From: Trypanosoma brucei
Taxonomy: Eukaryota
Direction of reading: 5' to 3'
NCBI GenBank assembly: GCA_000002445.1
Contig: CM000208.1
Location: 2,848,001-2,912,000, forward strand
DNA length: 64,000 nt
Made by a program: the position numbers and the translations under genes. Below, in pieces: positions 16,808 to 49,301 of the stretch (positions are counted from its first letter, which is position 1; the number at the start of each line of letters is the position of its first letter). The notes beneath the pieces are model-generated. The model ran no database searches. It had not been told where the DNA came from and saw nothing but the letters and a program-made list of their open reading frames with translations.

Positions 16808-19800
16808 ATGCGGGGGAGCTGCAGCGAGGGTGCATTATCAGGAGGATGTTTGCCATCTAGAGCTACAACAAACCCCTTAGGAGGACCCAGTTCAGCCGGA
16901 TCACTGGAAATGGCTGAGATGTTAGGAGCTGAAGCATTTTACGGGTTACCTATTCTTTGTTCCCTGTGGTCTGAGCGCAAACTCCCAAAACGACGCGGCG
17001 CGAGGGGGAGAGGCCAACATTGGTCTTGTGCTTCGGGTGAAAGCGGCAAGAAGCGGAATTGCAACCTTCCTCCACAGCTCCTCTTCACCATTATGAGTTA
17101 CCTCCTACCAGAAGGTATGTTGAAAATGAGGTTGGTTTGCCGTACCTTCAACGACGTGTTCCTCACGTACAGCGTCCAGGAAACATTCGCCGTGTCACTC
17201 CCCCGTAGTTTCATGGAACCGACAGTAGGATTTCAAACTCTCTCAGGACTGATAAAAGAACGTGAGGCCGTTCTACGCAATAAGGAGCGCTCCTGGTCTA
17301 AGTGGCTCTCAGCATACGTGGTGATGTGGCTCCGAAAAGAAGCAAACAATGATACCATAAGCAAGGCGACGGTGGAGGGACAAGCCCTGTGGGTGCAGCT
17401 TCAGCGATCGCGGGTGTTATGTCGGCTCGCAATGGAGGAATGGCTCGGGCACCTCTCAGACTGCCGCCGTGCGCAGTATAATATACGTAGGAACTGGTTC
17501 AACCCAACAAATTTGGGTTGTACGTTGCGGACTGGAGTGCCGCCCGTTTTCCTACCGGATGGAACACTCTGCATTAATGACCCACCAGATGTAGTGAAGT
17601 TTTACGCCAAGCGTGACAGGGGGTTGCCTTTGTGTGAAGATGCGCTCTCTCACAAAACTGTATCGCGAAAAAACGACTCGCTTAAGGACATGTGGGCTCC
17701 CTTTGAAGAGCTTGCGTTTCCTGCATATGTGTGTCTAATGTATTATGACCCTTACGTGGATGCGCTCCACATCAGTCTGGCGAGCGGCACGTGCACACTT
17801 TGGCGTGTGAACAGCATAGGAATTGAGGCTGCAGCGCATCGCACTGCATCTGAAGCGGATTTTGAGAGTTCTTCACATCAACTGTGGCGTAAGACTGATC
17901 TTCCTTGCCGTAGCATCCCTAGCAGAATTGAGGTGGTGGGAAACTACACCATTTCTAGCGAGTTTCTTGCTTGTTCCGTGACGATGACAAGAGACGGTAT
18001 TAAGCTAGAGGACTACAGGTGGAGTGAAGACGAAGTGATGTCTAAAGTGCGTTTGTTTGGTGAGGGCGCGAATGGCGACACTAGTCGTATCATCGTGGCA
18101 AGTTGTGGCCGAGACGTGTCAGCATCCCTTCTTCCGAGAGCCACTGCCGGTGATGCACACCTTACGAAGGAGGATGTGGCAGTACTGAACATTTTGCAAA
18201 ATCAGTTGTCAAACGCGAGTAACAGTGTAAACAGACCTCGAGCGGGTCCTACTCGCGGTGAAGCTTCTGCGAATGAATCCCATAGACCGTCTGCCACCAA
18301 CTCTGTTGATGGTATTAACGGTGGGCATAACGATGTGGAGAGTGGCAATAACGGCGGGAATATCATTTCTATTGCCGGTGGGCCTGGTAACGGAGCATTT
18401 GAGCTGCTTGTTGACGACATTGAGCACGAAGGAGTAGGAACTGCTGCGTCTGAGGTAACCGCTAACCACCTGGAAGGGGAAAGGGGAGATAGAATCACCG
18501 ACTTCAGGCCCTCTTCAATCACAATTAATTCCACCGAGAGAATCGACATAAAGCGACACGTTTTTGGAGTGTTCAACGAGCAGGCGAGACTGATGTGCAC
18601 TGTTGCGATCACACACGAAGTGGCTGTTTTCATTTTGACCCAATCAGGTTGCAGGACATTAGGAGTAAATTACAGCGGAGGAATACATGCTGCGTCCGTG
18701 CTGAGCTCACCGGTGTTTAAGCGTTGTGAGTCACCTACAGCAGAGCACCCGTGCGAGGAGGGAGATGCATTGTTTCTGTGCGCCTCTCAACACAACGTAC
18801 TAATCTGTCAGCAGAAGTTATATCGTCGCCTGGAAGAGGTTGAAATATTGGTTATTCACCAGAATCACCGAGAGGCAGCAACATCACGAGGCGCTTTGCG
18901 GCCAAGTGAGCAGCGTTATGGGACGTGGTATTTTCTTAAGGGGTATTCATACCACTCTCCACCAATGATATTGAGACCATTGGTGGAGGTTTCTTCTCTT
19001 ATGCTGCAGGCATTCGTTCAACCGCGTCCCCTATTACCGGAGCATCTAGAATGGCTCAGTAAAAGGTCAAATGAGGGAACATGCAAGGTAGATTGTCAAC
19101 GGCAGCGGGAGGAGCACCTCCCGCCGTACAAGTCTTCCTGGTGGTGCCCGCAAAGGGACGGACACCCTTACTTCCACAAGCCATTTGTAATGTTTATTTC
19201 AAAATTTGTGGGGTATCTACTTGCTGGTTGCGACTGTACTTCCGGGGGATACCAGGAGGTCTCTACGGACGACCGAGAGCATTTTCATAGCGTTCCCCTC
19301 CTTGATGGGATTGCAGTGAAGCGGCTCCACCCGTCCGCAGTGGCACTGTCGCCTTCGCATGCTTTTTTCGTCCTCGGAATGGAAAACGGTTCGATTCTGA
19401 TGGTGTCTCCATCATGTCGAAAGTGTGATCAGGCAAAAGACGGTCAGGGGGGTTGCACCACAGATGCGCAGGTCAATGGGGCCCATCTCATTGAGCAATT
19501 GGACACCATATCCATTCCCGAAGGTGGGGAGGGATATTTGGCGAGCAGAGAAGCCCCCCAACTTCTTGTTGCTGGCGAGGACTTGCACGAGGAAGGAGCG
19601 GATGAAGGAGAAAGCTCCTCAAGCTCCGAAGATGAGGCTGCACACCCCCGCTCTCAACACCCACATACAAGCCATTTATACCGAACAACAATAATTAGCA
19701 ACAGGGTGCGTGGTTCGGCGCGGCAAAAGCGCAACCTTCGGTCGTTCACCCCACAACAGCTGTTTGGATGTGCTTTCCATGAGGATCCATACATCTCTGC

Positions 19801-21289
19801 GTTACAGCGCTGTTCATCATCGATTCTTAATTCAATGGAACGCCTTGAAGGGGAACAGCGGCGGCACCATCCCACACCGATTCATGCCGTCTGGATTCAT
19901 GCCCCGCGTGATTGCTACCGGTTCTCACGTAAGTCAGGCATATGGAGTATGCACTTGGATGATTGGAAATTAACCGTACTTAACAGGCTGTATGAACTAA
20001 CGGTATACGACCTCTCTATGCAATCTTTCGTCGGAAAAGACAATGTTAAAGGGAGTGTTGTGTTCGCACCACTACTAACACTGAGCCCATATTTAAGTCA
20101 TCCGTTTCTGGGTGTCCCAATGAAAGATGAGGAGAAGTGGCTTTGTTCGAAGATACGTAGACGGATGCGGGCGGAAACGGAACGAACTGCCTCTGGATGG
20201 GAAATTGTGTGGCACAATGGAGTGCTGGTTGTGCTTGGAGTGTCAAAAGGATGGAGGTACTCCGTTTTTGACTTTCATGCAAGGTTTAGTGACCCCGATG
20301 TGAAAAACTTTTCAGACCCAGCGCCAGTGGCATATTCAGCTAAGCGAGACGAGTACTATGAAAGTATTTCTGGTTCTCAAATGTTAGTGCCTCTCGATTT
20401 TGGAAAAAAAGGGACTCACAAGCTAGCGCTGCCCCGTCACTTCCCACTCCTTAGGCGGGACGAGAATATGTATTTGGTGAGGCTTTCGGTAAGGGCCGTC
20501 ACATTGGTGTTTCTATGCGTGGCGTTAATACTGGTGATGCTGCGTATCGATGGATATATCACAGCGCCGCATTGGGTCGCAGCCGCTGCTTACGCTCCGT
20601 ATGCACTAGACGTCATCGCCAACTCATTCACAGACTATGATAGATATTACATAGTCCGTAGTGACGTGCCATTTTACATTCGTCTTTTCTCTGACCTGCT
20701 TCTCTATATCGTGTTCCCCGTTGTTTTCACTCTGCGTCGTGATTTGTACCCGAGATTCAACACGCCGTGGATCGTCCTGACAATACCGTTGTGTGTTGCC
20801 ATCGCTATGAAGTCACTGCCGGACATTTATATTAATATGCACCCCGGGCAGCGGCACTGGTTTGCGTGGGTTACTACATCGCGACTGTTGAAGGCGCTGT
20901 ACGAATGGCTGATAATTTCGACAATCGTCCTTCTAGCTCTGTATTTCGATGGTCCTTCTGGTCGTGATCCACTTGCACCGAAGTTCCACATTGCTCTGGC
21001 CTTAACTCCGGTAATGTTGTTAATATTAATATTGAAGGTGAAATCTGCTGCTGCCTTTGTCCGAACTGGAAACTGGAGGCTTTATCTTACTTGCTTATTT
21101 CCATTACTTCTGTTGGCACTTCAGGTGATGCTGTTCGTTGGTGAGTTCAAGGACTACTATGAATATATTGGTAAACCGATCACCACGCCTAAACCGTCGG
21201 CGTCTCAGTCCCTTTTCATTCTTCCCTTTTCTGTTATTGTGGTGGCGATTTACAAGGGATATACCGTGGCTTCAGTTCTTTGTAGGTAG
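16808..21289 (+). CDS. Large hypothetical protein with an N-terminal F-box-like motif and a C-terminal polytopic membrane domain
   Basis: 1493 aa. LPPQLLFTIMSYLLPEGMLKMRLVCRTFNDVF fits the F-box consensus LPxEiLxxIfsyLxxxdLxxxxxVCkxW. The last 300 aa or so contain about six long hydrophobic helices (for example LVFLCVALILVMLRI, WIVLTIPLCVAIAM, LIISTIVLLALYF, LTPVMLLILIL, LFPLLLLALQVMLFV). Confidence 0.7.
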   Translation: MRGSCSEGALSGGCLPSRATTNPLGGPSSAGSLEMAEMLGAEAFYGLPILCSLWSERKLPKRRGARGRGQHWSCASGESGKKRNCNLPPQLLFTIMSYLLPEGMLKMRLVCRTFNDVFLTYSVQETFAVSLPRSFMEPTVGFQTLSGLIKEREAVLRNKERSWSKWLSAYVVMWLRKEANNDTISKATVEGQALWVQLQRSRVLCRLAMEEWLGHLSDCRRAQYNIRRNWFNPTNLGCTLRTGVPPVFLPDGTLCINDPPDVVKFYAKRDRGLPLCEDALSHKTVSRKNDSLKDMWAPFEELAFPAYVCLMYYDPYVDALHISLASGTCTLWRVNSIGIEAAAHRTASEADFESSSHQLWRKTDLPCRSIPSRIEVVGNYTISSEFLACSVTMTRDGIKLEDYRWSEDEVMSKVRLFGEGANGDTSRIIVASCGRDVSASLLPRATAGDAHLTKEDVAVLNILQNQLSNASNSVNRPRAGPTRGEASANESHRPSATNSVDGINGGHNDVESGNNGGNIISIAGGPGNGAFELLVDDIEHEGVGTAASEVTANHLEGERGDRITDFRPSSITINSTERIDIKRHVFGVFNEQARLMCTVAITHEVAVFILTQSGCRTLGVNYSGGIHAASVLSSPVFKRCESPTAEHPCEEGDALFLCASQHNVLICQQKLYRRLEEVEILVIHQNHREAATSRGALRPSEQRYGTWYFLKGYSYHSPPMILRPLVEVSSLMLQAFVQPRPLLPEHLEWLSKRSNEGTCKVDCQRQREEHLPPYKSSWWCPQRDGHPYFHKPFVMFISKFVGYLLAGCDCTSGGYQEVSTDDREHFHSVPLLDGIAVKRLHPSAVALSPSHAFFVLGMENGSILMVSPSCRKCDQAKDGQGGCTTDAQVNGAHLIEQLDTISIPEGGEGYLASREAPQLLVAGEDLHEEGADEGESSSSSEDEAAHPRSQHPHTSHLYRTTIISNRVRGSARQKRNLRSFTPQQLFGCAFHEDPYISALQRCSSSILNSMERLEGEQRRHHPTPIHAVWIHAPRDCYRFSRKSGIWSMHLDDWKLTVLNRLYELTVYDLSMQSFVGKDNVKGSVVFAPLLTLSPYLSHPFLGVPMKDEEKWLCSKIRRRMRAETERTASGWEIVWHNGVLVVLGVSKGWRYSVFDFHARFSDPDVKNFSDPAPVAYSAKRDEYYESISGSQMLVPLDFGKKGTHKLALPRHFPLLRRDENMYLVRLSVRAVTLVFLCVALILVMLRIDGYITAPHWVAAAAYAPYALDVIANSFTDYDRYYIVRSDVPFYIRLFSDLLLYIVFPVVFTLRRDLYPRFNTPWIVLTIPLCVAIAMKSLPDIYINMHPGQRHWFAWVTTSRLLKALYEWLIISTIVLLALYFDGPSGRDPLAPKFHIALALTPVMLLILILKVKSAAAFVRTGNWRLYLTCLFPLLLLALQVMLFVGEFKDYYEYIGKPITTPKPSASQSLFILPFSVIVVAIYKGYTVASVLCR

Positions 21290-24233: not shown

Positions 24234-25502
24234 TGGCGAGTGTTTACAACAGTGTCGGGGTCGTGTCTGATGATTGTCTCGCTCATATTAACCTCTTGGG
24301 TGCGCTTATTGTTTCCCTCTCTCCATCAACTACTATTTCATATTGTCTTCATTGACTTTTGGTCAAAGTTTGTCAGTTTGTTTTTATTTTGTTTTCCGGA
24401 AAGGAAATATACGAATGCCTGTGGAGGTGTGTGTGTGTATGTGTACGTCCTTTTCTTTCTTAACATCACCATGCTGCAACTCTGGAAAATGAGTATGGTT
24501 GCAAGCGATTACTTTTATTCGTTTCTGTTTTCCGTTTCCTCACGGATGTGTGTCAGCTCAAAACCTCCCCATTTCCTATCGGTTTGAGCGTTGTAAATTC
24601 TTATCGTCCCGTGTGTTCCTTTTTAGTTTGAAGTCACAGCACTCTCCGTGGTCGTTTTGTTCCTTCGCTTCATTAATTTTTTTCATTTTTTTTTTTGGAT
24701 TGTTTGGATCCGCACAAGGCAAGAGGCAAATTGAAAATGCAAACATGGGAGGGTGTGGTACCTTCCACGCAACACGAGACTCTGTAGTTGGTGTTCGAAC
24801 GATTTAGTCAATCTCTATAGTTATTACGTACTTTTTCCCCTTTCCATCCGATGTCTTTTGCTGTCGTTGTTTTCAAAAATACAAAAGGACAGAATTATAG
24901 GTTCAATAACGGAAGGAAAGTTTGTGAATGCAGCAAAGGCAAGATATGTGAACGAGCTTCAACCACAGAGGTGCTATAAATTTAGGAGGCTGCAGGGCGC
25001 AAGCTGGCGCTTTCTCTTTCCTAAGAGGAGAAGGGAGCGCTCCATGTGACGCCAAACAAAAAGTTCATTCACTCCCGTTCGCATCCTGTGTGATTCCCTT
25101 TCTAACAAAACCGTGCACGTGATGAGAGTATGTTCTTTCTATATACTGATTTGTCCATTGAAGTACACAGATACATATTCATAGACTGTCGTTTCCCTGA
25201 CCGCATTTCCACCGGTTTTCCCCCTCTTTGGATGGATTGATTCGATAAATCTTTCTGTTGTGGTCTTTTCCACACCCCTGCGTTACATGTACCATGCAGC
25301 TTGCTGTTGAGCTGCATCGAAGTGGGATGAAACACTTGAGAACTGTTGTGGCTTACGTACCTTTAGCTGCGTACTTCTCGCTTCTCACTACTCATTCCTC
25401 CGTATCTTCTGCTTTACCTCTCGCTCTTTAAAATCCACACTGCCAGAAACAACGAAACCGTTTAAGCGGGACAAACTAATTAATTTTGTGGGAATTGCCA
25501 GT

Positions 25503-25853
25503 ATGCCACCGCGGGCTCGACTTTTTGTTGGGCAGCTAAACTTTGACGCAACCGAAGATGACATATATGCACTTTTTGATTTCTACGGGAAAGCCCTTCA
25601 TGTCAATATACTTCGTGACAAGGAGACACAAAAAAGCAAAGGCAGCGCCTTCGTGGAATATGGAAGTACGGAGGAGGCAGATTGTGCCATTCTCGCGCTT
25701 CACAACCGCTACAATATGGAGCGCGAAAAACCGCTTCAAGTGTCTTATTGTAACAAGTCCGAGTTGATATCCGAGTTTGGCAGGGATCATGCCTCGAAGT
25801 TACACGACGAGAACCCTGCGAACCCCGCCCCACCACAACGTGTTCAACGGTGA
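25503..25853 (+). CDS. Single-RRM RNA-binding protein, tandem copy 1
   Basis: The track ORF starts at GTG; the ATG gives MPPRARLFVGQLNF.... RNP2 is LFVGQL and RNP1 is KGSAFVEY; total length 116 aa. Confidence 0.8.
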   Translation: MPPRARLFVGQLNFDATEDDIYALFDFYGKALHVNILRDKETQKSKGSAFVEYGSTEEADCAILALHNRYNMEREKPLQVSYCNKSELISEFGRDHASKLHDENPANPAPPQRVQR

Positions 25854-26539
25854 CTAGCTGAGGGAGTAGCTTATATTGTTAATATATGAATAGCAGTTGA
25901 GATATACCGCTAATGACTATGTACTTGGTTCTGGAATTTGACGATATATTTTCCCAATTGTAGCGCTTCTGCTTCTGTGGTTGGATTTCTTATCTTATAT
26001 TTGCGTGATATCACTATCTTAATCGTGAGGAGGGCTAATCTTCCGGCGTTGAGATGGGTACTTGTGTTATCGATGCATGCTGCGGTTACTCCTCACCAGT
26101 TGCTAACAAATAACACCGCGGAACAGAAACAATGATCGACCTTTTTCTTTCCTCCTGTACATGGGAATTAGACTGCATGTAATGGGTTTAATGTTGAATC
26201 TTGTACGTGTCTCTGTGTAGGAGGGCGGTGTTCGAAAGAGATTTGCTCCTCTAACAACACATATATGTGTTTTTCTCGTTCTAAAATCTTTCTGTTGTGG
26301 TCTTTTCCACACCCCTGCGTTACATGTACCATGCAGCTTGCTGTTGAGCTGCATCGAAGTGGGATGAAACACTTGAGAACTGTTGTGGCTTACGTACCTT
26401 TAGCTGCGTACTTCTCGCTTCTCACTACTCATTCCTCCGTATCTTCTGCTTTACCTCTCGCTCTTTAAAATCCACACTGCCAGAAACAACGAAACCGTTT
26501 AAGCGGGACAAACTAATTAATTTTGTGAGAATTGCCAGT

Positions 26540-26890
26540 ATGCCACCGCGGGCTCGACTTTTTGTTGGGCAGCTAAACTTTAACGCAACCGAAGATGACA
26601 TATATGCACTTTTTGATTTCTACGGTGATGTGCTGCACGTTAATATACTTCGTGACAAGGACACACGAAAAAGCAAAGGCAGCGCCTTCGTGGAATATGG
26701 AAGCACGGTGGAAGCGGACTTCGCCATCCTCGGACTTCACAACCGTTGCAACACGGGACACAGAAAACGACTTCAGGTGTCTTATTGTAACAAGTCCGAG
26801 TTAATATCAGATTTTGGAAGGGATCATGCCTCGAAGTTACACGACGAGAATCCTGTGAACCCCGCCCCACCACAACGTGTGCAACGTTGA
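26540..26890 (+). CDS. Single-RRM RNA-binding protein, tandem copy 2 (diverged paralog)
   Basis: Same architecture as copy 1, with about 16 of 116 residues different; the differences cluster in residues 56-77 (EADCAILALHNRYNMEREKPL versus EADFAILGLHNRCNTGHRKRL). Confidence 0.8.
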   Translation: MPPRARLFVGQLNFNATEDDIYALFDFYGDVLHVNILRDKDTRKSKGSAFVEYGSTVEADFAILGLHNRCNTGHRKRLQVSYCNKSELISDFGRDHASKLHDENPVNPAPPQRVQR

Positions 26891-27692: not shown

Positions 27693-28046
27693 ATGTCGCA
27701 ACGGGGTTCCGCTGTCCATCGCACTCGTTCTCCCGATACGACAGATGATCGTGACTGCACTCGCCTTCGAACGGAGGGGTGGTCTGAAGATGTTAGTTTG
27801 TACAAAACACATCCCTTCACTTTAGCCTCGCAGGGAACCACGAATGGGGATGGCCTCACTGAAGGGGAACTCTACATTCAGTTGTGCAAGACTCCAGGCG
27901 GTAGTGAGCGACTTCCACCAGGATGGGAGAAGGTGTTATACGAAGGGGCGGTTGTTTACCTCGATCACATTTCTCGTGAAGCTCATGAAGTGCCGCCGTG
28001 GGAAGTGTGGCGTAAGCGGAGTGGTGCTGCAGCTTCATCTGCTTGA
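27693..28046 (+). CDS. Small WW-domain protein
   Basis: 117 aa. LPPGWEKVLYEGAVVYLDHISREAHEVPPWEVW fits the WW consensus LPxGWE...G..YYxNHxT..T.W..P. Confidence 0.65.
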   Translation: MSQRGSAVHRTRSPDTTDDRDCTRLRTEGWSEDVSLYKTHPFTLASQGTTNGDGLTEGELYIQLCKTPGGSERLPPGWEKVLYEGAVVYLDHISREAHEVPPWEVWRKRSGAAASSA

Positions 28047-29140: not shown

Positions 29141-32100
29141 ATGAACTTTAGGAAACTAACAAAATTTTGGAGAAGGCAAACGAGCCAGGTTGATGTTGTC
29201 TCGGGGAGTGAAAAGTGTACAAGCGGTGATTATTGTGATACATTCGTTGGGCTTTTTCGAGGACAGCAGGGGAAAAACTTTGTTTCGTCGCTAGAAAGCG
29301 GACAAGCTGCTCTTGAATATATTAAAAATGTTACGGAGCGAGGGCAGATGACCAGCGGCACCCTCTCATCCTCGACAGACGACGAGCTGAAGCGAGAACG
29401 CGAAGAGACCCTCGTTGCTCTTGAGTTATGTGTGATTACGCATCCACAGTTTGTCAACACAGACGTGAACTCCAGCAACATTGAGAGCGGGGAAAGCGAG
29501 GGAGTTTCTCCTTCAACCACCGAGAAGGTTGCACACGAGGCTGCAACGAACACTACTGGGGAAGAAGTGACCATCACAATTAGTGAAACAAGTAATGGTA
29601 CCGCTGCTGCGAGTGCCAATACACGCAACGGCGAAGCAGCTACCCCAGTCGCACATTATACACAAGAGGAGCGTAGGGCTTTGCTGTACGAATTGGTCAG
29701 CATCATGCTTAGCATTGATCGTTTTCTTTACATAAATAAAATTAGGGAGGAAATACAGCTTCAGCACCCCTCAATGTTGGTGACCCCACCACCCACAACC
29801 ACCATCGGTACGGAATTGCTGGAGACCGCTCCATCGACGAATGCCACAGATGAAAAGAGTGTTGATTTTGAAAGCGATCCGTACGTGGCGCCGCCATCCA
29901 TTTCATCCACTGGAAGGGAGTCGGTACCAGACCTCGCGTCATGCCAATCAAACCCAGGCGACCCTGATGGAGATATTTCAAATCGAAGTTTGAACAGAGC
30001 AGAAGAGGTAGTGGCAAGAATTCAAGCGATCACCACTTGGATTGTCCTGCAGAAGGTACTGCGGAGTCAGTTGGAGTTGCACCGGGAAAGAGCCACCCAG
30101 CCAAATAGTCCCACAATAGAAGCAGGAGCATCGGAAGCAGAGTATGTGTTGCACTTTGAAGAACTGTGGATCGACACGGCTCCTCTACGGTGGGAGCAAG
30201 TGGTGGAAGAACTCAAGGAGGCCCTTGGCATGCGACGGAAGGAAATTGCAGAGGCCATTATATCTAGTTGGATACTGAACAATCATGCAGGTCATGAGCT
30301 CCTACAGTGTGTTATGCTGGAATTTTGTTACGGTGCCAACTTCGAGCACAAGACTGCGGTTGATGTGGATACCACACGACCGGAAATTATTTTCATGCCG
30401 GCAATCGGGAGCAATGACAGTGATGGTCAAAACCAGTCGCTGCAGCAAACTGAGGCGTTGACTGACACGACTCCCGAAGCACATGGCGGAGATGATGTCG
30501 TTCCAGATGACATGGTGGAAAAGGTGAAGAAAACATTCAAACAGTGTATTGTAACGCCATGGGTCTGCTATTTGGAGCAATCGTTGCAAGTATTCCAACT
30601 GGAGGGGGGCAATAGACCTGGTAAAGTGTTGGACACAACAAACGTTTCCCTCTGTTGCATGGTCAGTGCGTATGCGATTTGCTCAAAGCACTGGGAGGAA
30701 GTGAAAAGAAGGGACATCTTTCATTTTTTGGAAAAATTGTGGTGCGAACAACATGTTTCTACGCAGGTGGAGCGGATGAAGTGTGTTAGCACTGGGACAG
30801 AGGAAGATACCAAGCCTGAAAGCGAGGAAGTTGAGTGCGTGGACAGTTGTTCACCGCCTCAGGCATTGGACGGCGACAGCGATGGTACTGTTACGGTTGG
30901 TCACTGCGCTGAGAACGATAAATATGCTTTTTTGTGTGGGGATGAGTTCATATTGCCAGTGATGCTGCACGAGGCGTGGGCGACGGTGTTATGCATTCGT
31001 GCTCATCAGTGCCTTAACGGCGCTGGCCAGCCACTCTCTGAAGCGGTCAGACATGTTCGTCGGGCTTGCAGTTTGCCCATACAAAGATTTCCCTTTTGGT
31101 ATTGCCAAAGGGCTCATGAAGCTATCGTACATGCGTATGTTGCTGCCGGAAACTATGCCGGTGCGATTGAGATTGGACGAGCAAATGTAAACAGAAGCGA
31201 GCGATATTGTGCAACCCATGGCCACTGCCTTGCTAGCCGGGTGAATTACCTGGAGTCGTTGCAACTGCTGGCTGAGATACAGGCTGTGTACCCTGGTAGT
31301 ACTTCATTTACCAGCACTGTGCAAACGGTCCTACAACAGGCGGTACTCTGCGAGCAAGCACTGAAGGACGTTTTGCCTGTCTATATCAACGGGGTGGCCA
31401 GCCGTTATGCCGCTTTGCGGAGGAACATCTATCGAGTGAAGCTCATGGTTCTAAAGTTAAGTTGGCGTGTTCACTATCGTCTCGCTGAGGTCACACGCGC
31501 TAACATGTACTTTCACCAGTACATCCACCTTTTAACGTGTAGAAAAGTACCGGGGCGATTGGAAGAGCAATACAACGCGTGGAAAGAAAGGGGGGAACAA
31601 CTTCTCGGAGTGGAGCACAACTCAGCTGTTTGCTTTTTCGCGCGGGCGGTTGACTGTGCTAAAAAAATTGTCAGCTCCGTTTCACGGACTGCACCAACAG
31701 TGGATTCCACTGCAAATTGTGCATGTTCCCCAGTGACATTACCGTGTTTGGCAGCAGCAGATGCCACAGACACCGTGCATCAGGAGATAGAACTTAATAA
31801 AATGGAGGCGGAAGGCGAACGCAATCTTGCACTTGCCTATATCGAACAGGCGGACCACGAAGTCAACGTGAAGAAGCGGCGGCAACAGCTTAGCAATGCC
31901 GTAAACTGTGCTTACGCAGCGCAAGGTATTTTGCACCGTTGGACATCAAAATTAAAGGCTGTCATCCCCTCTACGCTAATGATTGGTGTCGCCTCTGGCA
32001 TTGTTGTTACAACCAAAGCGCTGCTTCGTCTCGGACAGCCGCGGAAGGCAGCACTTCTGTTGGAACCACTAATCGAAGAGAGGTCGAACTCCAGCTCCGT

Positions 32101-35100
32101 ACGGCCTCCGCTCTGGACCAGTGCACTGGAGCCACTTGGTCGCCCTCTCACCGCTGGAGAAATCAGTGAGCGCACGGCGACAATGCTCGTAAGACTTAGA
32201 GCATGTGACCTTCATGCACAATGCCTCAGCAAGTTTGACGGGGAGCGTGGCTATCGAGAGGTGGAGCGTGCAAGATCCTTCTTGAAAGAGTTGAAAACGT
32301 GGGCGGTATCGGTAATTGCGGAAAGCGCCGTGGTGTACCCTAAGGGGGAGCAACTAATGGTGGACTCTTCCATGTACAACGGCATATTGGAATTGTTGCG
32401 CGAAGCGAATGCACTACATCCATTACTTAGTATCACATGCGGCGATTCGTTGGTTAGCTTGGGAAAATGGGAAGAAGCGTTGCAAGAGTACTCTGATGCC
32501 CTTTCCATCTATAGCGCCGGTAGTGAGATGGATGGTCTTTCCAACCGCCCTGGAGATGGTATCAATGAGTGTCCCTTTACAACAGATGGTGTAATGCAGA
32601 TTCAGGAGACAACCCGATGGGGAAAAGACCAAGACCGCATAAAGAAATACTTTAAAATAAAGGAATCGTTAGTACTAGCGAAGCTCGCTGAGGTGTATGT
32701 TGCACTAAGGAAGCCACTAACCGCCATTCATTACTACCGACAGGTGTTGGAGAACTCAACAGAGGTTGGTGACGCGCTGCTGCAATACAACGCTCGTCTT
32801 CACCTCGCCCGCTTGCATACAGCTACTGGTGAAACAGATGTTGCGGCAGAGCAGTGGTCCCAGGTTAGTGAACTGGCAAAGGTGTACGACGACGAGGAAA
32901 TCAGCCGTGAGACAACTCGAAACATTATTGAGGCTCAACAAACCCGCGGTGCATATGCAGATGTGATTGAGGTTGCAAGAGAACTCAACAATCTGGCATC
33001 TGCGGCGGAAGGTGAAGATGCCCTAGAGGACAGATGTTTCGCTCTCGAAGCAATTGCTGACGCTCATCTTCAACTTGGCCAATACAAGGATTGTGTTAAG
33101 CTCCTTGACGAGCGGGAGAAAGTTGAGGACAAGGGGGCTCAAAGAAAGGGTGAGCTTTTTAACATGCGTGCACGTGCCCTACTTGGCTCCGGTGCAACAC
33201 AAGAAGCGGTTAAGGTTCTGGTGAAGTGGGCGCAAGTGGCCCGGCAGCAGTCAAAGTTTGTTGAGTTGGCAAATGCTAATGCATCTCTGGCAGCTGCATA
33301 TGCCACGGCAGGCCAGATATTTAAGGCGAAGCGACATCACCAAGCTGTTCTTTCGGCGCTCGCAGAGGTGCCCGACATGACACAGGAGCAATCTGGAACC
33401 GCAATGGAATCTGCGCGTTGGCTCGTCCACCAGTTTTACCTAAATGATGAGAAGGTGCCACTCCTTGATGATACGCGCTGCGCGAGGGAAGAGAAGCGAC
33501 CAAGTGCCATGAATGATAGCTTTTTCCCCTCTTCGCAGTCTGTGAGAAGGTATGACGTTGTCTCGCCCTGTGTACTGTCCACCGCCTCCGGTGAAGGCAG
33601 CGAAGGGGAAGGTGAAGAGAACGAAGGGGACGAATATTTTGTTATGAGTGAAAGCGGTGACCTAAACGTACTCCTACAGGAAGAGGAAAAACACGCAAGG
33701 AGACGATTGAAAAATAGAAGTGCAAGCCACGATAACTGCTGTAACAGTTGTAGTAGCGGTGTTTACAGCGGAAGTAGCGAAGGTAGCAGCGAAGGAGGGA
33801 ATACCGCTATGGATGAAAGATTCTTGACCGACTGCGATAATGGCGAAGAACTACCACTGAACTGCTCGATGGTTGGCGTCGACATGGCCTCTGTGCTGCA
33901 GCAGGATGACACGGCTGTGCATACTCTTGGTGTTAGCCGCGGAAGGGATGTAACCAACGGATGCGGTAGTGATGAGGCTACAATCACAGAGAAGCCTGTC
34001 TTACCTTCATCTGACCTCTGCGGCTTGTCCCCGTCTGTGTCCCCTCCCGTTAGTAACGTCAGTGGGGATGCTGCAACCACCAATGCAACCCCAGTCCTTC
34101 GAGGCAAATTGGCTGACTTGAGGGCAAAACAAACATGTGCCTCTGTAGCTGAAACATATCACACGGACGCAGCATCTGAAGGCAGCCATTCTGGTGGAAG
34201 TCCCGTCAATATACAAGCAGGTGATGATGACGGAGCACCGACCGAGGCTCCAACCAGGGAGTTCCTAGACAGAGTGACTACGAAGTCACCTAACCCAGCA
34301 GCTGTGCACACAAAGTGCTTTCACCGAGCGCTAGAAACCATTGAGGCAGCTACTCAACTAGCGTTGATGACGGTGGCAGGGCGGCAGGGCACCATTCCCA
34401 GGAACCCTGCCGATGTTATCGACCTCGCGCTTATCTCTTTTCCACATTGCACCTTTGTGTTTTACTTCGCCGATTTCGCCACACAGCATAGCGTGATTAT
34501 TCGTCCCGCGTGCAGAAGCTTCTATCTGGAATGCCTAGTACACCCGTACACACTAAATAACTATCATTCGGGGGGTTTTCCACCACAGTCACAAAATCAA
34601 CAGGATGGGCACCGGATGATACCTGACGAAAACAACGGTGCTACTGCAGACGGCTCCGTCACATCACCAGACAGTAGCTGTAAGTGGACCTCAGGAGAAC
34701 ACGAACTTCTTCAATCCCTGCACGATCTTCATGCAGATCTTTGGGAGCCTGTGTGTTTTTTGTTGAAGAGGTCCCATTGCAGACCCGATGAGGCGGAGTG
34801 CTTGGTTTTTGTTGTTGATCCCACTTTGCTACAAGTGCCCTTTCCTGCCCTTGTCGGTCGCGGAGACAAGGAAATACCGCTGGGTCAGCAATATACTGTA
34901 CTCGTTACACCAACTGTGGTGAACTTTCTTAGGACAATGCAACATAATAAGCGACCGACGCTTTTTGGTGCTCCACAGAAGGACCGCAGTGCGTTCCTTC
35001 CACAGGGTGTGTCGTCGCAACCGTGGATAGCAAGTGAGACCACGCTCAAAACCAGCAGCCAGTTAGGGTCGTGTTCATTTCCGGCCCAGCCGATTCCGAC

Positions 35101-35719
35101 TGCGCAAGTGAGTGTGGCGTCAAGCATGGGCTCAGTTGTCACTGCCAGAAGTACCGTATCTTTGTTAGGGGAGCTGCGCGGCACATCAAACGACCATGAT
35201 ACTGAAATTGCTTCTAGAGACACTAGCAATGCTGGCACTTGGACCGTTTTCAGTGGTTGCACGCGTAAGGAGCTTGTGTCCGCTTTTGGTTCCCCCTCTT
35301 GTCGAGCTCTGATGCTGCTTTGTGACCCTGTCGGACATAAGTTTAAAGTTGCCGATGGCATGGTCGGACTTGCCGATGTTATACGCGGCAATCCATCTCT
35401 ATCGGAAACGCTGGATCTTGTAGTTATTACAAATGAGCGCTCAACGATGACTTCAGTTGAAGAGCCCGGGATAGCCGCAAGATTGTGCTTGCAGTACGGT
35501 TATCCGCGTGTCATCCGTGTGGATCTACCGCCCGGCACAGGTGTAACCACTGCACACCTGAGACTTTTACACGCGTACTACGAAAAGCTGTCCATGACCC
35601 TCGAGTGGCGCATGCGGTATCCCTACGCATTGGCACTCCGTATGGCCCAGGAAGAGGCATTGCGACTTGGTTTCCCACCCACTGTGTGCGCTTCCCTCAC
35701 GCTGATTGGAGCAGCATGA
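29141..35719 (+). CDS. Giant protein (2192 aa) with TPR-like helical repeats and a C-terminal CHAT-like (caspase-fold) domain
   Basis: Central TPR-like units (ALQEYSDALSIYSAG; AKLAEVYVALRKPLTAIHYYRQVLENS; ARLHLARLHTATGE). The last 350 aa or so track the CHAT-domain pattern: LVFVVDPTLLQVPFPALV, YTVLVTPTVVNF, LDLVVITNERS, GIAARLCLQYGYPRVIRV, and the ending ALALRMAQEEALRL...CASLTLIGAA (compare the CHAT end ALrxAqlwL...WAaFvLiG). The domain call is from memory of the Pfam CHAT profile. Confidence 0.7.
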   Translation: MNFRKLTKFWRRQTSQVDVVSGSEKCTSGDYCDTFVGLFRGQQGKNFVSSLESGQAALEYIKNVTERGQMTSGTLSSSTDDELKREREETLVALELCVITHPQFVNTDVNSSNIESGESEGVSPSTTEKVAHEAATNTTGEEVTITISETSNGTAAASANTRNGEAATPVAHYTQEERRALLYELVSIMLSIDRFLYINKIREEIQLQHPSMLVTPPPTTTIGTELLETAPSTNATDEKSVDFESDPYVAPPSISSTGRESVPDLASCQSNPGDPDGDISNRSLNRAEEVVARIQAITTWIVLQKVLRSQLELHRERATQPNSPTIEAGASEAEYVLHFEELWIDTAPLRWEQVVEELKEALGMRRKEIAEAIISSWILNNHAGHELLQCVMLEFCYGANFEHKTAVDVDTTRPEIIFMPAIGSNDSDGQNQSLQQTEALTDTTPEAHGGDDVVPDDMVEKVKKTFKQCIVTPWVCYLEQSLQVFQLEGGNRPGKVLDTTNVSLCCMVSAYAICSKHWEEVKRRDIFHFLEKLWCEQHVSTQVERMKCVSTGTEEDTKPESEEVECVDSCSPPQALDGDSDGTVTVGHCAENDKYAFLCGDEFILPVMLHEAWATVLCIRAHQCLNGAGQPLSEAVRHVRRACSLPIQRFPFWYCQRAHEAIVHAYVAAGNYAGAIEIGRANVNRSERYCATHGHCLASRVNYLESLQLLAEIQAVYPGSTSFTSTVQTVLQQAVLCEQALKDVLPVYINGVASRYAALRRNIYRVKLMVLKLSWRVHYRLAEVTRANMYFHQYIHLLTCRKVPGRLEEQYNAWKERGEQLLGVEHNSAVCFFARAVDCAKKIVSSVSRTAPTVDSTANCACSPVTLPCLAAADATDTVHQEIELNKMEAEGERNLALAYIEQADHEVNVKKRRQQLSNAVNCAYAAQGILHRWTSKLKAVIPSTLMIGVASGIVVTTKALLRLGQPRKAALLLEPLIEERSNSSSVRPPLWTSALEPLGRPLTAGEISERTATMLVRLRACDLHAQCLSKFDGERGYREVERARSFLKELKTWAVSVIAESAVVYPKGEQLMVDSSMYNGILELLREANALHPLLSITCGDSLVSLGKWEEALQEYSDALSIYSAGSEMDGLSNRPGDGINECPFTTDGVMQIQETTRWGKDQDRIKKYFKIKESLVLAKLAEVYVALRKPLTAIHYYRQVLENSTEVGDALLQYNARLHLARLHTATGETDVAAEQWSQVSELAKVYDDEEISRETTRNIIEAQQTRGAYADVIEVARELNNLASAAEGEDALEDRCFALEAIADAHLQLGQYKDCVKLLDEREKVEDKGAQRKGELFNMRARALLGSGATQEAVKVLVKWAQVARQQSKFVELANANASLAAAYATAGQIFKAKRHHQAVLSALAEVPDMTQEQSGTAMESARWLVHQFYLNDEKVPLLDDTRCAREEKRPSAMNDSFFPSSQSVRRYDVVSPCVLSTASGEGSEGEGEENEGDEYFVMSESGDLNVLLQEEEKHARRRLKNRSASHDNCCNSCSSGVYSGSSEGSSEGGNTAMDERFLTDCDNGEELPLNCSMVGVDMASVLQQDDTAVHTLGVSRGRDVTNGCGSDEATITEKPVLPSSDLCGLSPSVSPPVSNVSGDAATTNATPVLRGKLADLRAKQTCASVAETYHTDAASEGSHSGGSPVNIQAGDDDGAPTEAPTREFLDRVTTKSPNPAAVHTKCFHRALETIEAATQLALMTVAGRQGTIPRNPADVIDLALISFPHCTFVFYFADFATQHSVIIRPACRSFYLECLVHPYTLNNYHSGGFPPQSQNQQDGHRMIPDENNGATADGSVTSPDSSCKWTSGEHELLQSLHDLHADLWEPVCFLLKRSHCRPDEAECLVFVVDPTLLQVPFPALVGRGDKEIPLGQQYTVLVTPTVVNFLRTMQHNKRPTLFGAPQKDRSAFLPQGVSSQPWIASETTLKTSSQLGSCSFPAQPIPTAQVSVASSMGSVVTARSTVSLLGELRGTSNDHDTEIASRDTSNAGTWTVFSGCTRKELVSAFGSPSCRALMLLCDPVGHKFKVADGMVGLADVIRGNPSLSETLDLVVITNERSTMTSVEEPGIAARLCLQYGYPRVIRVDLPPGTGVTTAHLRLLHAYYEKLSMTLEWRMRYPYALALRMAQEEALRLGFPPTVCASLTLIGAA

Positions 35720-36821: not shown

Positions 36822-39221
36822 TTGAACAACTTCATTGCTGTCCATAGTTTGCTGTCACGTCGATTAAGGATGTCTGCGACATCCCCGAGAAATATATATG
36901 CACCGCTCAAAGTTGAGTTCGACAGCGAGGTTGAAATCACAATTCACAGCGCCTTCTTACAAACGGCACGTTTGCTTCAATGTGACCCGATGGCGCACGT
37001 AAGCGTCTCTACGCTTCATGTGGCAACGGACACACGTCGACCGTGCGGGGGTGTTACTCAAGTTGGAGAGAGTACTAGAATAGTTAAAAACGAGCGTCCC
37101 GTTGGTTCAACGAGGCGGCTGCACTTCACCTCAAAGCCAAACTTCAGTGAAATCATACGGTTTGTGATACCTTTCACACAGTGCCGTCGGTCGACTATGA
37201 GACCAGAATCGCGGCTGCTGCTTCGTAAAACCGCTGCGGCAGTATCTACGGATGACAATCCTGATGAGCGGTTTGTTGATCATCAAGTATTGATAACAAT
37301 TACCGACGCACAAGAACAGGGATACGGTCAGGCCGTGTGTCCGTTTCTTTTGCACGTCCCTAGCAGCTCCACGGAGCCACAACGCATCATGCTACAGCCA
37401 CGCAACAAACACGACAAGCACGACCCCGTATTCAAATCTGATGTGGCTCTGCTTGCTAAGCACGGCGTTGACGATTTTGGTTTCGTGGATATATCGTGGC
37501 GAGTCAGTCTGATCCCGCACGGTGGTGCCCTTATCACTGCGTTGCAACCATCGGTAAGCGTACCTACATTTCCCATAGGACTCGTGCTGCGGGCAACGTG
37601 GCTCGTAGCTGGTAACGTCCACCAACCTCGCACACAGTACACGACGTCTGTGGAGTTTGGCGGGCAAGACCGTTTTTTGTTTGAAGGGACAAAACCGCTT
37701 TTTCTTACAATTCAAAGCGCTGCGCAGCTTGAGCGAGCCATCGTTCATTGCACTTTCCACGACACAACGACTCGTCCCCAGTCGTATGATGTGGCTGTAC
37801 CACTGCCTGTTCCCCCGATGGCCTCTTTTGCCATGGAGCGCGATGTATGGTGGACAACTCCCGTGCGAACCGCATGTGGTGTTGACTTAGGCATTCTTCT
37901 GGCATCTATACGTCTTGCACAACGACCTCTTGATGGCAGTACACCATTCTGTACCGTTGAGGGTTGTAGGGAAATTAACAACCCCATTCACCAGTCGCAG
38001 TTTGCACATGTGGCAAAGGAGTGGGGACGCGCACCACCCAATACACCGCCTGGTGCCTACTACCCATTGTTTTGGGAATCTGAGCAGCATATTGCTCGCG
38101 TGGCGGAGCGGCAGTGGCGCCATGATTGCATTGTTGGGGCACGTCCCTCTATAGAGCATGTGCGGCACCTCCTGGAGGTCCTTGCGGGTCGCATTGCCGT
38201 CGATGGCGGCGTGAATGGGGTTGCGGCAGTATACTTCAACCATGCACCGACTACAACACTACAGCAACACCAGGTAAAGCAGTTTCTTGTAACGTGTGCT
38301 TTCCACGCAAAGGAGATGACAGTGCAAGATGCAGCCCGGTTTTGCTTCTTTGCCCTTCGTCGCGACATGGAGCAGGCCATAACGAAGGAAGACGTCGTCT
38401 TCATTCTAGATCACGCACTTATCGGGAAAACAATTGATATGCCTGAGAAAGAAGTATCCCGTCGCGTTGACGACATCTTTGGCGATGGTGTGTACATCAC
38501 CTTTGACGACTTCATGCGTTATTTCATTAACAACTATGCCATGTGGTACCAGTTTGGTGTACCCATTACGACAGGTGATGAACAGGCGGCACAGGGCAGC
38601 ATGGATGTGGCCGTGGAACTCGGACCAAATGCTCAAGGGACGGCGAAGGAGGAATCTGGTGAGGAAGCTCGTGGTGGTGCCGCAGTGCCTGTCGCGCCTC
38701 GTGGAGAGGAGGCCGGGTCATCGAACTCTAATCCTCAAGATGTTGGCGTTTGGCGCAGATTTATAGCACGTGTTCAGCATAGTAACAGGGCATTTAGCGT
38801 AACAGCGCACGTGAACGACTCCATTGCAGAGGTGATGGTGATGGTGCAGAATAGTACTGGAATCCGCGCGTCCTGTCAGGAGTGGAGGATGAATGGTGTT
38901 TTGTTGGATCCAAAGGCTACGGTAGGAAGCACAAAGTTGGGGCTTAGCTCGCGGAATGATGCGTCACCGGAGGTCGTCATTATTGAACGTGATGAATCCT
39001 TGCGTCTTGTTATGTTGTACAAGGAGAAGTCAGTCCGTTGGGAGCTACGCATTCAAGAAACAGAAAAGGTGCTGCGACTCAGAGCACTGGTTCAGCAAAA
39101 AACATTGATACCCCTCTCACGTTGTGTTATGCGGGCGAATGGCCAACGCCTTCAGGACAGGCACCCACTTCAACACTATCAACTTCAAAATGGCGATGTC
39201 GTCGAGGTAATGCAAGAGTAA
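36822..39221 (+). CDS. Hypothetical protein with two C-terminal ubiquitin-like (beta-grasp) domains; the probable true start is the downstream ATG near 36870
   Basis: 799-aa ORF. The C-terminal segments FSVTAHVNDSIAEVMVMVQNSTGIRASCQEWRMNGVLLDPKATVG and RLVMLYKEKSVRWELRIQETEKVLRLRALVQQKTLIPLSRCVMRANGQRLQDRHPLQHYQLQNGDVVEV each follow the ubiquitin pattern (L..G..L.D...L..Y.I.NGD.V). An EF-hand-like stretch DDIFGDGVYITFDDFMRYF is also present. Confidence 0.65.
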   Translation: MNNFIAVHSLLSRRLRMSATSPRNIYAPLKVEFDSEVEITIHSAFLQTARLLQCDPMAHVSVSTLHVATDTRRPCGGVTQVGESTRIVKNERPVGSTRRLHFTSKPNFSEIIRFVIPFTQCRRSTMRPESRLLLRKTAAAVSTDDNPDERFVDHQVLITITDAQEQGYGQAVCPFLLHVPSSSTEPQRIMLQPRNKHDKHDPVFKSDVALLAKHGVDDFGFVDISWRVSLIPHGGALITALQPSVSVPTFPIGLVLRATWLVAGNVHQPRTQYTTSVEFGGQDRFLFEGTKPLFLTIQSAAQLERAIVHCTFHDTTTRPQSYDVAVPLPVPPMASFAMERDVWWTTPVRTACGVDLGILLASIRLAQRPLDGSTPFCTVEGCREINNPIHQSQFAHVAKEWGRAPPNTPPGAYYPLFWESEQHIARVAERQWRHDCIVGARPSIEHVRHLLEVLAGRIAVDGGVNGVAAVYFNHAPTTTLQQHQVKQFLVTCAFHAKEMTVQDAARFCFFALRRDMEQAITKEDVVFILDHALIGKTIDMPEKEVSRRVDDIFGDGVYITFDDFMRYFINNYAMWYQFGVPITTGDEQAAQGSMDVAVELGPNAQGTAKEESGEEARGGAAVPVAPRGEEAGSSNSNPQDVGVWRRFIARVQHSNRAFSVTAHVNDSIAEVMVMVQNSTGIRASCQEWRMNGVLLDPKATVGSTKLGLSSRNDASPEVVIIERDESLRLVMLYKEKSVRWELRIQETEKVLRLRALVQQKTLIPLSRCVMRANGQRLQDRHPLQHYQLQNGDVVEVMQE

Positions 39222-45917: not shown

Positions 45918-46601
45918 ATGCGATCAGCCACTGAATATACAGATGGTCTGCTAGGGCTTCCAACTTCACCGCAACTAGCCACACATAAAGAAAGAAGTGG
46001 AGGCACTCAAGTAGGCTTGTGCCCGTGCTTCCGCATCGCAGCCGGCGAATTCATGCACATATATGCGATTTTAAAGGAGGAGCGACTTTCCTGGCGAGAC
46101 GATTTTTTTGACGTTAGTCAGCTTTCAGTACCGCGAAGTACGTCGGAAGTGCTTGAGAGGTTGAACCTCAACTTGCCCTTCTACGCGGCCAACTACATGA
46201 CGGTGTGCATTGTCGTGACGTCTCTTTTATTGTTTCTCAACCCTTATTTCCTCATCTTATTATGTTCCTTAGTTCTCCTACTGCGTGGTTTGTTTCTCCA
46301 CGGGAAATACCAAGGAAGACCTAACCATTGCATCTATATAGGTGGGGTGACTGTCTCGTATTATCGCCTTTTGATTGTGACGCTTTTCGTTCTTTTTTTA
46401 TTTCCTGTTGTTTGGAGTGGGATCCTTAACCTACTTTTTCTTTTGCTCGTAGGCGCCGCTCTTGTTCTTCCGCATGCGGTGTCGCGTCGGCCTGTGTACT
46501 TCCATGATGAGGAACTAGAGAAGCGACGACCAAAGGCTCTTCAATATGTGGTTGTCTTTCTGCTCCACTTTTTGAGTTACATGGAGAGCCCTAACAAGTG
46601 A
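45918..46601 (+). CDS. PRA1 (prenylated Rab acceptor / Yip3) family membrane protein
   Basis: 227 aa. LSWRDDFFDVSQLSVPRSTSEVLERLNLNLPFYAANY fits the PRA1 signature (RPWxEFF...P.s..E...R...NL.YF..NY); two long hydrophobic hairpins; HAVSRRP near the C-terminus. Confidence 0.6.
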   Translation: MRSATEYTDGLLGLPTSPQLATHKERSGGTQVGLCPCFRIAAGEFMHIYAILKEERLSWRDDFFDVSQLSVPRSTSEVLERLNLNLPFYAANYMTVCIVVTSLLLFLNPYFLILLCSLVLLLRGLFLHGKYQGRPNHCIYIGGVTVSYYRLLIVTLFVLFLFPVVWSGILNLLFLLLVGAALVLPHAVSRRPVYFHDEELEKRRPKALQYVVVFLLHFLSYMESPNK

Positions 46602-47192: not shown

Positions 47193-49301
47193 ATGGGAAG
47201 AAATAAGTCCCATGCGCCGTACCTTGGGGTATTAGAAGATGGCCTCAACACATTACAGCGCATACAACAGTGGGGAGCTGCCGCAGAGCTGTTATACACC
47301 CCGAACAGCCTTGTGAGCAGCCCACAGAGCTCGAACGAACCGCACGCATTAACTGTGGCCCGTCAAATCGCTACCATCATGGCGCGACTGAATGAATTGT
47401 GTAGACGTGAAGCAGAGGTGCTCCTAACGCCCCGATTGGCTCTTCTAGAACTGGCGGACGTTATCCGTCACGGTCTTGTCTCCTTTCACCAAGAGGGTTT
47501 TAATGGCCAATTAGGCAATGCCGAGGTGCTGGCCAAGTACGTCGCCCATCGTACAGCTCCGCAGTGTGGCGTAATAGAAGGGTTACATGTTATCACATGG
47601 GTGAGCGTGAAACTACGCATAGAGTTGTTTATTGAGCAACTACGCAAACGGGTTGATGGGGAACTTGCAGCAGCGGAGGGTGGGGGCAGCCGCACTGAGC
47701 AGCAACTGTCTGCATTGCGCACCACACAGCTGCTGTTCAATGACTTTGAATCACTTTACGACAATCTCCTTGTTACTTTTCCGTGCGTTCAGTATGCGGA
47801 CACAATCCCTGAGGTGGGTGCGCAGCTGATGCCAATCCTCTTGAAACAATACTATCAAATTGCAGAGTGGGTGGAGCTGGTAGAGTCCAACAACGCGCTC
47901 CCTCCCTTAACCGAGACGAGAGTGCAGTCCGTTGACGCGGAATCTTCATCCTTCGTGGTACGCCGTCAAAACCCAGAGGCACCTTTGGGTCTCGTCTTCA
48001 ATGAATGTGGCCGCATAGTTGAAATAGATCCTTCCGTCCGCAGTGCATCGGCATCTGGGGAAGAGCTGCATCGGCTCCTGCGGTGCAGCGAAAAGGGGGC
48101 AGTGGTAGTCGCAGTCAATGGAAAACCAATACCGCGCTCCCCACCGAGCAAACCATCAAAGGTGCTGGAAATGGTTCACGATGCCGTGAAGAAGAACAAG
48201 CGGGTTGTCGTGAAAGTGGCCAAGGAGCTATTTAAACAACCAAAAGTTCATCAGTTAGCGTTTATAATGCCAAACCAGGGAGGTGAAGGCTCTTCCGGCC
48301 AGCGCGCCACACTAGTGCTTCACCGTAGTGACCGGCTCACTCCTTGGGGTTGCCAATTTGATCAAGACTTAATTATAAACAAGATCCCCAGGCGGGAATT
48401 ATCCGAGGATGCTAAGAATTTCTTCACAGAGTACAGTGACCGAGTGAGCATCACGGCTGTGAACGGTGTTGAAGTGACGACGGTGGCTCAGGCGCAAGCG
48501 CTTTGCTCTGACACAGAGACTGCGGTATTAAGCCTTGTGGTCGTTACACCTGCAATGGCCCAGCAGCGAAAGAACCGCACCACGAGACAGGACACGTCGG
48601 TAACCTTGACCCCACAACAGATTGAACAGCTTCAAGAGACGCCGCTAGTTCCTGAACAGAAAACTCTACCTCCTCTGAATCAAGCCCCGGCGGAATTGTT
48701 GGAAAGCGACAGTGTCGTTGATGGCAATCTCGATGCAGCTCTGCTCTCAACCTCTATGGAAGACACCGGTGAGGTGGAGGATGTAACCCATGAACCCCAT
48801 TCACAGGTGGAGGAAGTGGACATGAACACGTATCAGCGCGTGGCAATTGATGTACACCACGGGGAAGATTTGGAACAGGAAGAGCGGCAGAAACAACAGC
48901 ACCTGGAGAGTGAAAGGCATCTCGAACCATCAGGCTTAGAAGGGTCAACGGATGCAGATGCTCCAGGTCCACTCGTTTTTCCCAACGATGTTGCCATCGA
49001 TCTGCTTACTCCGTCAGAGATGGTAATCCGGCGGCCATCCACAGAAGATAGATGGGGTCTCGTGCTTAACAAAATTGGAACAAGCTCAGGGGATGCACTG
49101 CGTGTCTTACAGCTTCCGGAGCTCCCGCCAAAGGGCGACACTAGGCGAAAGCATCCGTTTTACAAGACGTTCAAAAATCCATCCGTACCGACGGAGTGGC
49201 GCATCGAGAGCGTCAACAACACGCCAGTTTCAAAGGCAGCAGACATACTTGAAATAATGCGAAAATCTCTCAAGCTGAGTATTAAGTTTTTCAAGCTTTG
49301 A
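47193..49301 (+). CDS. Hypothetical protein with possible PDZ-like segments
   Basis: 702-aa ATG ORF with complex composition. GLVFNECGRIVEIDPS...AVVVAVNGKPI and WGLVLNKIGTSSGDALRVLQL...WRIESVNNTPV resemble PDZ beta-strand patterns; this is a low-confidence domain guess. Confidence 0.6.
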   Translation: MGRNKSHAPYLGVLEDGLNTLQRIQQWGAAAELLYTPNSLVSSPQSSNEPHALTVARQIATIMARLNELCRREAEVLLTPRLALLELADVIRHGLVSFHQEGFNGQLGNAEVLAKYVAHRTAPQCGVIEGLHVITWVSVKLRIELFIEQLRKRVDGELAAAEGGGSRTEQQLSALRTTQLLFNDFESLYDNLLVTFPCVQYADTIPEVGAQLMPILLKQYYQIAEWVELVESNNALPPLTETRVQSVDAESSSFVVRRQNPEAPLGLVFNECGRIVEIDPSVRSASASGEELHRLLRCSEKGAVVVAVNGKPIPRSPPSKPSKVLEMVHDAVKKNKRVVVKVAKELFKQPKVHQLAFIMPNQGGEGSSGQRATLVLHRSDRLTPWGCQFDQDLIINKIPRRELSEDAKNFFTEYSDRVSITAVNGVEVTTVAQAQALCSDTETAVLSLVVVTPAMAQQRKNRTTRQDTSVTLTPQQIEQLQETPLVPEQKTLPPLNQAPAELLESDSVVDGNLDAALLSTSMEDTGEVEDVTHEPHSQVEEVDMNTYQRVAIDVHHGEDLEQEERQKQQHLESERHLEPSGLEGSTDADAPGPLVFPNDVAIDLLTPSEMVIRRPSTEDRWGLVLNKIGTSSGDALRVLQLPELPPKGDTRRKHPFYKTFKNPSVPTEWRIESVNNTPVSKAADILEIMRKSLKLSIKFFKL

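Follow-up and report, generated by a model that had tools for sequence, protein, structure and literature searches.

The subject of this analysis is a 2192-amino acid protein encoded in a 64,000-nucleotide stretch of the Trypanosoma brucei genome (contig CM000208.1, positions 2,848,001 to 2,912,000 of the forward strand; the whole of this stretch is called the window below). With a probability that we put at roughly 80%, this protein is a conserved pseudoprotease: a non-catalytic scaffold or adaptor that has kept the fold of a CHAT domain and has lost both of its catalytic residues. Its gene is a complete open reading frame (ORF) that, with the stop codon, occupies 29141..35719 of the plus strand, exactly where the initial annotation, made from the sequence alone, had placed it. 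The product is 100% identical over 2192 amino acids to a protein of T. brucei brucei TREU927 (XP_823417.1 / EAN78589.1 / UniProt Q389D1), the gene for which sits on the 4.05-Mb chromosome 10 record and is probably Tb927.10.12120, a number derived from gene counting. In T. b. gambiense and in T. equiperdum the copy is 99% identical to it. NCBI currently names the protein "hypothetical protein, conserved" and UniProt/UniRef, automatically, "CHAT domain-containing protein". The automatic record of a CHAT domain for Q389D1 is therefore already known. What is new is that the domain truly has the CHAT fold, that both catalytic residues are missing from it in all 27 of the kinetoplastid homologues examined and that the dead site is itself conserved.

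The first question is whether the C-terminal domain is a CHAT domain at all. The initial annotation had proposed one on the strength of a series of motifs, all of which are present: LVFVVDPTLLQVPFPALV, YTVLVTPTV, LDLVVITNERS (L2093-S2101), GIAARLCLQYGYPRVIRV, CDPVGHKF (2061-2068) and ALALRMAQEEALRL...CASLTLIGAA. Taken alone, the Pfam CHAT profile (PF12770) gives a borderline answer. The whole protein scores 23.1 bits (E 5.7e-5), just under the gathering cut-off of 24.0, and C-terminal fragments reach 24.1 and 24.4 bits and so narrowly clear it; the match spans only positions 3-93 of the 289 in the profile, that is, the first third. Even so, of 19 family members 12 match the same profile independently (E <= 0.01; lowest value 1.7e-7). 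Profiles were also compared with each other. When a 23-sequence kinetoplastid alignment is set against ten bacterial CHAT domains with hhalign, the two are matched with a probability of 98.7% (E 1.5e-15, 326 columns), and the alignment takes in the whole CHAT module, together with the beta-hairpin region that precedes the Pfam model. With the C-terminal half only, the probability is 85.7% (E 5.5e-6). The ten bacterial domains were taken from plasmid records by means of a rough CHAT consensus, which served as bait and for nothing else; the proteins retrieved in this way bear the annotation "CHAT domain-containing" and contain both HLATHG and VVLSAC.

Structure prediction leads to the same place. 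The model of the CHAT region has a core predicted local distance difference test score (pLDDT) of about 90 and a predicted template modelling score (pTM) of 0.76. Its top Foldseek matches are Csx29 (3.4e-10) and separase (1.2e-6), it superposes on these and on caspases, and its three-dimensional fold is of the caspase/separase kind. Searches of PDB sequences with the CHAT region, whether as a single sequence or as a profile, returned no meaningful match, and the link to solved CHAT structures is one of fold only. With four independent lines in agreement, residues 1715-2192 are a real CHAT/caspase-fold domain.

The bacterial domains also show where the catalytic residues ought to be. Two hhalign runs and a MAFFT alignment agree in setting the bacterial motif L-V-V-L-S-A-C-x-T against L-V-V-I-T-N-E-R-S of the T. 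brucei protein, which brings E2099 to the catalytic Cys position. (The MAFFT alignment, of bacterial and kinetoplastid C-terminal halves, misplaces the region upstream of the DG motif and was used for the Cys loop only.) The His position was read from topology. In the model a helix (TRKELVSAF) is followed by a strand at 2056-2059 (ALML) and then by LCDPVGH; because this strand is the His strand by topology (bacterial RIIHLATHG), D2062 is assigned to the His position. The residues that matter for the argument, all on the plus strand, are as follows.

35324..35326, plus strand: D2062, which follows strand 2056-2059 and corresponds by topology to the catalytic His of IIHLATHG in active CHAT domains
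35336..35338, plus strand: H2066 of CDPVGHKF, not conserved
35429..35443, plus strand: the ex-active-site loop T2097-S2101 (TNERS), aligned to S-A-C-x-T of bacterial CHAT domains
35435..35437, plus strand: E2099, at the catalytic Cys position
35486..35488, plus strand: C2116, near-invariant in the family
35555..35557, plus strand: H2139, near-invariant in the family

Neither catalytic residue is found anywhere in the family. Across the 27 homologues the Cys column holds Asp 19 times, Asn three times and Glu, Pro, Gly, Thr and His once each, with Cys in none; the column of D2062 holds 12 Asp, eight Pro, three Thr, two Ala and two Ser, with His in none. There is an alternative way to read the second of these positions, as both hhalign and MAFFT place a gap against the bacterial His strand, and no His is present under either reading. 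As far as the aligned sequences go, the Cys-His dyad is lost throughout the family, from Trypanosoma via Leishmania, Leptomonas and Phytomonas to the free-living Bodo saltans. A CHAT domain in which the dyad is lost in every member found cannot work as a cysteine protease. The initial annotation had noticed the substituted Cys and suggested an inactive CHAT scaffold, and the alignments and family columns bear it out on both counts; the checks that it had proposed, by profile, by alignment with bacterial CHAT proteins and by predicted structure, all turned out in its favour. Its other suggestion was a shifted dyad, which is not supported. The His of CDPVGHKF, H2066, occurs in only 4 of the 27 homologues and is Cys in T. 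congolense and Gly in T. vivax.

Is the protein peculiar to one genome? The initial annotation had remarked that a TPR-CHAT protein in a kinetoplastid-like genome would be an unusual module. Word-indexed homologue searches yielded at most the copy of T. b. gambiense or a single fragment from T. cruzi. The family came to light when the CHAT region was put through an exhaustive phmmer search: 29 homologues at E <= 0.001 among 1.84 billion representative proteins. The protein is thus no oddity of a single genome. All of the named sources are kinetoplastid (T. congolense, T. vivax, T. rangeli, T. melophagium, Phytomonas, Leptomonas, L. mexicana, with the orthologue XP_003878402.1, and Bodo saltans). 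Another T. brucei protein, Tb927.9.15290 (TvY486_0907550 in T. vivax), is annotated with a CHAT domain in the literature; as it is not among the 29 relatives, it is at best a distant paralogue.

The family also shows which parts of the protein are under constraint. Identity in the conserved blocks of the CHAT domain is 49-68% within Trypanosoma and 26-37% against the most distant members, values similar to those of the TPR core (56-69% and 28-42%, respectively), whereas in the linker and the two CHAT inserts identity falls to 0-29%. The ex-active-site loop has the family consensus T-x-D-R-[ST], with Asp in 19 and Arg in 18 of 27 sequences. Four polar residues that are absent from bacterial CHAT domains are near-invariant: C2116 (25 of 26), R2123, R2126 and H2139 (26 of 27). 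A conserved loop together with near-invariant polar residues argues that the cleft region has retained a non-proteolytic function and that it has not decayed.

The layout of the rest of the protein was drawn from 19 full-length relatives, two AlphaFold models and the regional identity across the family. From the N-terminus it reads as follows.

29141..30505, plus strand: N-terminal region, residues 1-455, poorly conserved (9-26% identity in the family) and rich in Ser, Thr, Pro and acidic residues
30506..32530, plus strand: alpha-solenoid, residues 456-1130, made of conserved long TPR-like helix pairs with three low-confidence loops
32591..33460, plus strand: TPR array, residues ~1151-1440, of the canonical Pins/LGN (TPR_12) type, with about 6-7 hairpins
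33461..34282, plus strand: linker, residues 1441-1714, disordered, acidic and rich in Ser and Gly; 7-24% identity, not alignable between genera
34283..35716, plus strand: CHAT (caspase-haemoglobinase fold) domain, residues 1715-2192, with three conserved blocks (residues 1715-1815, 1853-1950 and 2030-2192) and two inserts
34586..34696 and 34991..35227, plus strand: the two CHAT inserts, variable and modelled with low confidence

The TPR array is the best-conserved part of the whole protein, and half of the amino acid differences between T. b. brucei and T. b. gambiense lie in residues 1-455. TPR repeats thus stand N-terminal to the CHAT domain, the association that is typical of CHAT proteins and the order that the initial annotation had read from the sequence. 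The product is a putative large protein of cytosolic type.

How might such a protein work? The protein has the marks of a caspase-fold pseudoprotease: its fold has been kept, the catalytic residues are gone and its sequence is conserved in a way that speaks of continued function. The most likely role is one of binding and scaffolding; this we infer, whereas the fold, the homology, the dyad loss and the conservation are observed. In the hypothetical scheme that we favour, the groove of the Pins/LGN-type TPR array would bind extended stretches of peptide in partner proteins. The dead CHAT domain, tethered to the array by what would be a flexible linker, might then hold a partner or peptide without cleaving it, by way of the conserved ex-substrate cleft (loop T-x-D/E-R-S). 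It could also self-associate or dimerise in the manner of caspase-fold domains.

Some observations weigh against the pseudoprotease interpretation. Our searches found no experimental data on the gene and no literature match for a CHAT domain in Trypanosoma or for the likely gene numbers. The residue at the His position hinges on where a gap is placed in a low-identity alignment. The differences between T. b. brucei and T. b. gambiense comprise 18 non-synonymous and 9 synonymous changes (stop codon excluded), a comparison too shallow to measure selection; it is because these codon differences are so few that regional identity across the family was used to judge constraint. Finally, the conserved D/E-R pair, C2116 and H2139 may leave room for other chemistry or for ligand binding.

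One alternative would relate the protein to metazoan TTC28, as a divergent counterpart that shares its role. Human TTC28 (Q96AY4) is described as having a CHAT domain after its TPR repeats (PMC9145168) and as being needed for the cell cycle; the two proteins have the same domain order and are of similar size. The Pins/LGN (TPR_12) type of the kinetoplastid TPR array fits this idea too. However, no metazoan or TTC28 name appears among the 29 phmmer relatives, every named source being kinetoplastid. Moreover, the shared layout is weak evidence of orthology because TPR-then-CHAT is also a common bacterial layout. We regard this alternative as doubtful.

What if the former active site has not merely been silenced and has instead been put to a new use? 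In this scenario the T-x-D-R-S loop together with C2116, R2123, R2126 and H2139 would form a new site for sensing a ligand or peptide, or even for catalysis. If true, the re-purposed site would make the protein a kinetoplastid-specific signalling module without a described counterpart. In our judgement the idea is an improbable one.

Equally improbable is orthology with CFAP46/FAP46 (TTC40), under which the dead CHAT domain would serve as a structural module of the flagellum. CFAP46, a large structural protein rich in TPRs, belongs to the C1d projection in the central apparatus of the axoneme, and kinetoplastids have a canonical 9+2 flagellum. In layout and size the two proteins resemble each other (about 2200 amino acids, helical repeats and then a CHAT-like domain). 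FAP46 does contain a CHAT/separase-like domain, the fold of which is similar to that of the kinetoplastid CHAT domain, and orthology was attractive once this fold match had been seen. It is supported neither by the full-length profile nor by the model of the helical region. Searching PDB sequences with the single sequence or with the full-length family profile does not return the FAP46/CFAP46 chains 7n6g_1N and 9ijj_B, both of which the library contains, even at E <= 10, the CHAT model is matched better by Csx29 and separase than by FAP46, and the modelled helical region resembles Pins/LGN rather than FAP46. No localisation data were found for the gene. The entry under "axoneme" in a TrypTag supplement is Tb927.10.12130, which by counting is the neighbouring ubiquitin-domain gene. 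Three genome-scale studies have no entry for Tb927.10.12120 or FAP46 in their supplements.

The weakest alternative, that the domain is still an enzyme with non-canonical or shifted residues (H2066, C2116 with H2139, or D/E2099-R2100), is one to which we give very little credence: the loop has been kept and C2116 and H2139 are conserved in the family and absent from bacterial CHAT domains, as an enzyme would have it, but H2066 is present in so few members, and in the hhalign alignment C2116 falls opposite a hydrophobic residue in a helix of bacterial CHAT and H2139 opposite the start of a later helix, neither of them in an active-site loop. The Cys column also holds Asn, Pro, Gly, Thr or His in some members, and no caspase-fold peptidase of clan CD is known in which Asp or Glu replaces the nucleophilic Cys.

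The gene lies among others that are transcribed in the same direction. The window forms part of a single polycistronic unit, in which each of the 21 ORFs of at least 200 amino acids is on the plus strand. Its neighbours include these.

25488..25853 and 26525..26890, plus strand: RBP7A/RBP7B (Tb927.10.12090/12100), tandem, near-identical ORFs of 121 amino acids with one RRM each
27693..28046, plus strand: Hyp7-like ORF of 117 amino acids with the WW-like motif LPPGWEKVLYEGAVVYLDH...PPW, which fits the published Tb927.10.12110
36822..39221, plus strand: ORF of 799 amino acids with a ubiquitin-family domain at its C-terminal end (residues 739-798, E 2.2e-12)

RBP7A and RBP7B, upstream of the 2192-amino acid ORF, are published regulators of slender-to-stumpy differentiation; each has 121 amino acids in the window compared with 116 in the T. 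b. gambiense annotation. Hyp7 (Tb927.10.12110) has been described as a hit in a quorum-sensing screen that resembles MAGI-1, a WW protein, and it is reported as nuclear in TrypTag. The 117-amino acid ORF has no Pfam match at E <= 0.01. The number Tb927.10.12110 belongs to this small upstream ORF and not to the 2192-amino acid gene. The downstream ubiquitin-domain gene (799 amino acids here, 783 as annotated in T. b. gambiense) is probably, again from gene counting, Tb927.10.12130, which the TrypTag supplement lists with an early-S transcript peak in addition to the axoneme entry. Eight genes downstream, a 225-amino acid ORF fits Tb927.10.12200, a small trypanosomatid-only protein. The number Tb927.10.12120 was obtained by counting between Tb927.10.12110 upstream and Tb927.10.12200 downstream.

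Within the conserved CHAT coding region lies an antisense ORF of 168 amino acids (34885..35391, minus strand), which is most likely a chance ORF. Elsewhere in the window, 16808..21289 (plus strand) is a 1493-amino acid ORF with an F-box-like motif near its N-terminus (residues 85-117; 24.9 bits, just over the cut-off). Two PRA1-family paralogues (45918..46601 and 49980..50630, plus strand) flank 47193..49301, which encodes a 702-amino acid protein with PDZ and DUF7759/7761/7762 domains.

Kinetoplastids include major parasites of humans and animals, and about half of their proteins are without a known function. For this one an architecture has now been defined, along with a prediction that it binds and does not cleave. 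This corrects the impression, given by the name "CHAT domain-containing protein", of a caspase-like protease that might serve as a protease drug target. In practical terms the result will be of modest value until its partners or a phenotype come to light, and no paper that discusses this gene was found.

It remains to set the protein beside systems that are better understood. Human TTC28 is, like it, a eukaryotic protein described as TPR-then-CHAT (PMC9145168). Separase (C50) is an active Cys-His protease, whereas the kinetoplastid protein lacks the dyad and is similar in fold only; Peptidase_C50 was not matched in a Pfam scan of the 2192-amino acid protein even at E <= 10. With FAP46/CFAP46 there is no detectable sequence similarity, even for the family profile at E <= 10. 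Two caspase-fold pseudoproteases, the protease-like domain of c-FLIP and the caspase-like domain of Raptor, represent different branches of the fold (caspase proper and Raptor); they are far shorter than the kinetoplastid protein, and neither is attached to a comparable TPR array. Csx29 is the TPR-CHAT protease of the type III-E CRISPR "Craspase", and no CRISPR or partner genes apply to the kinetoplastid protein. The bacterial TPR-CHAT proteins carry HLATHG and LVVLSAC with an invariant His and Cys, neither of which the kinetoplastid family has. In comparison with them the kinetoplastid protein is 3-4 times longer; its linker is long and disordered, and its CHAT domain is interrupted by two inserts.

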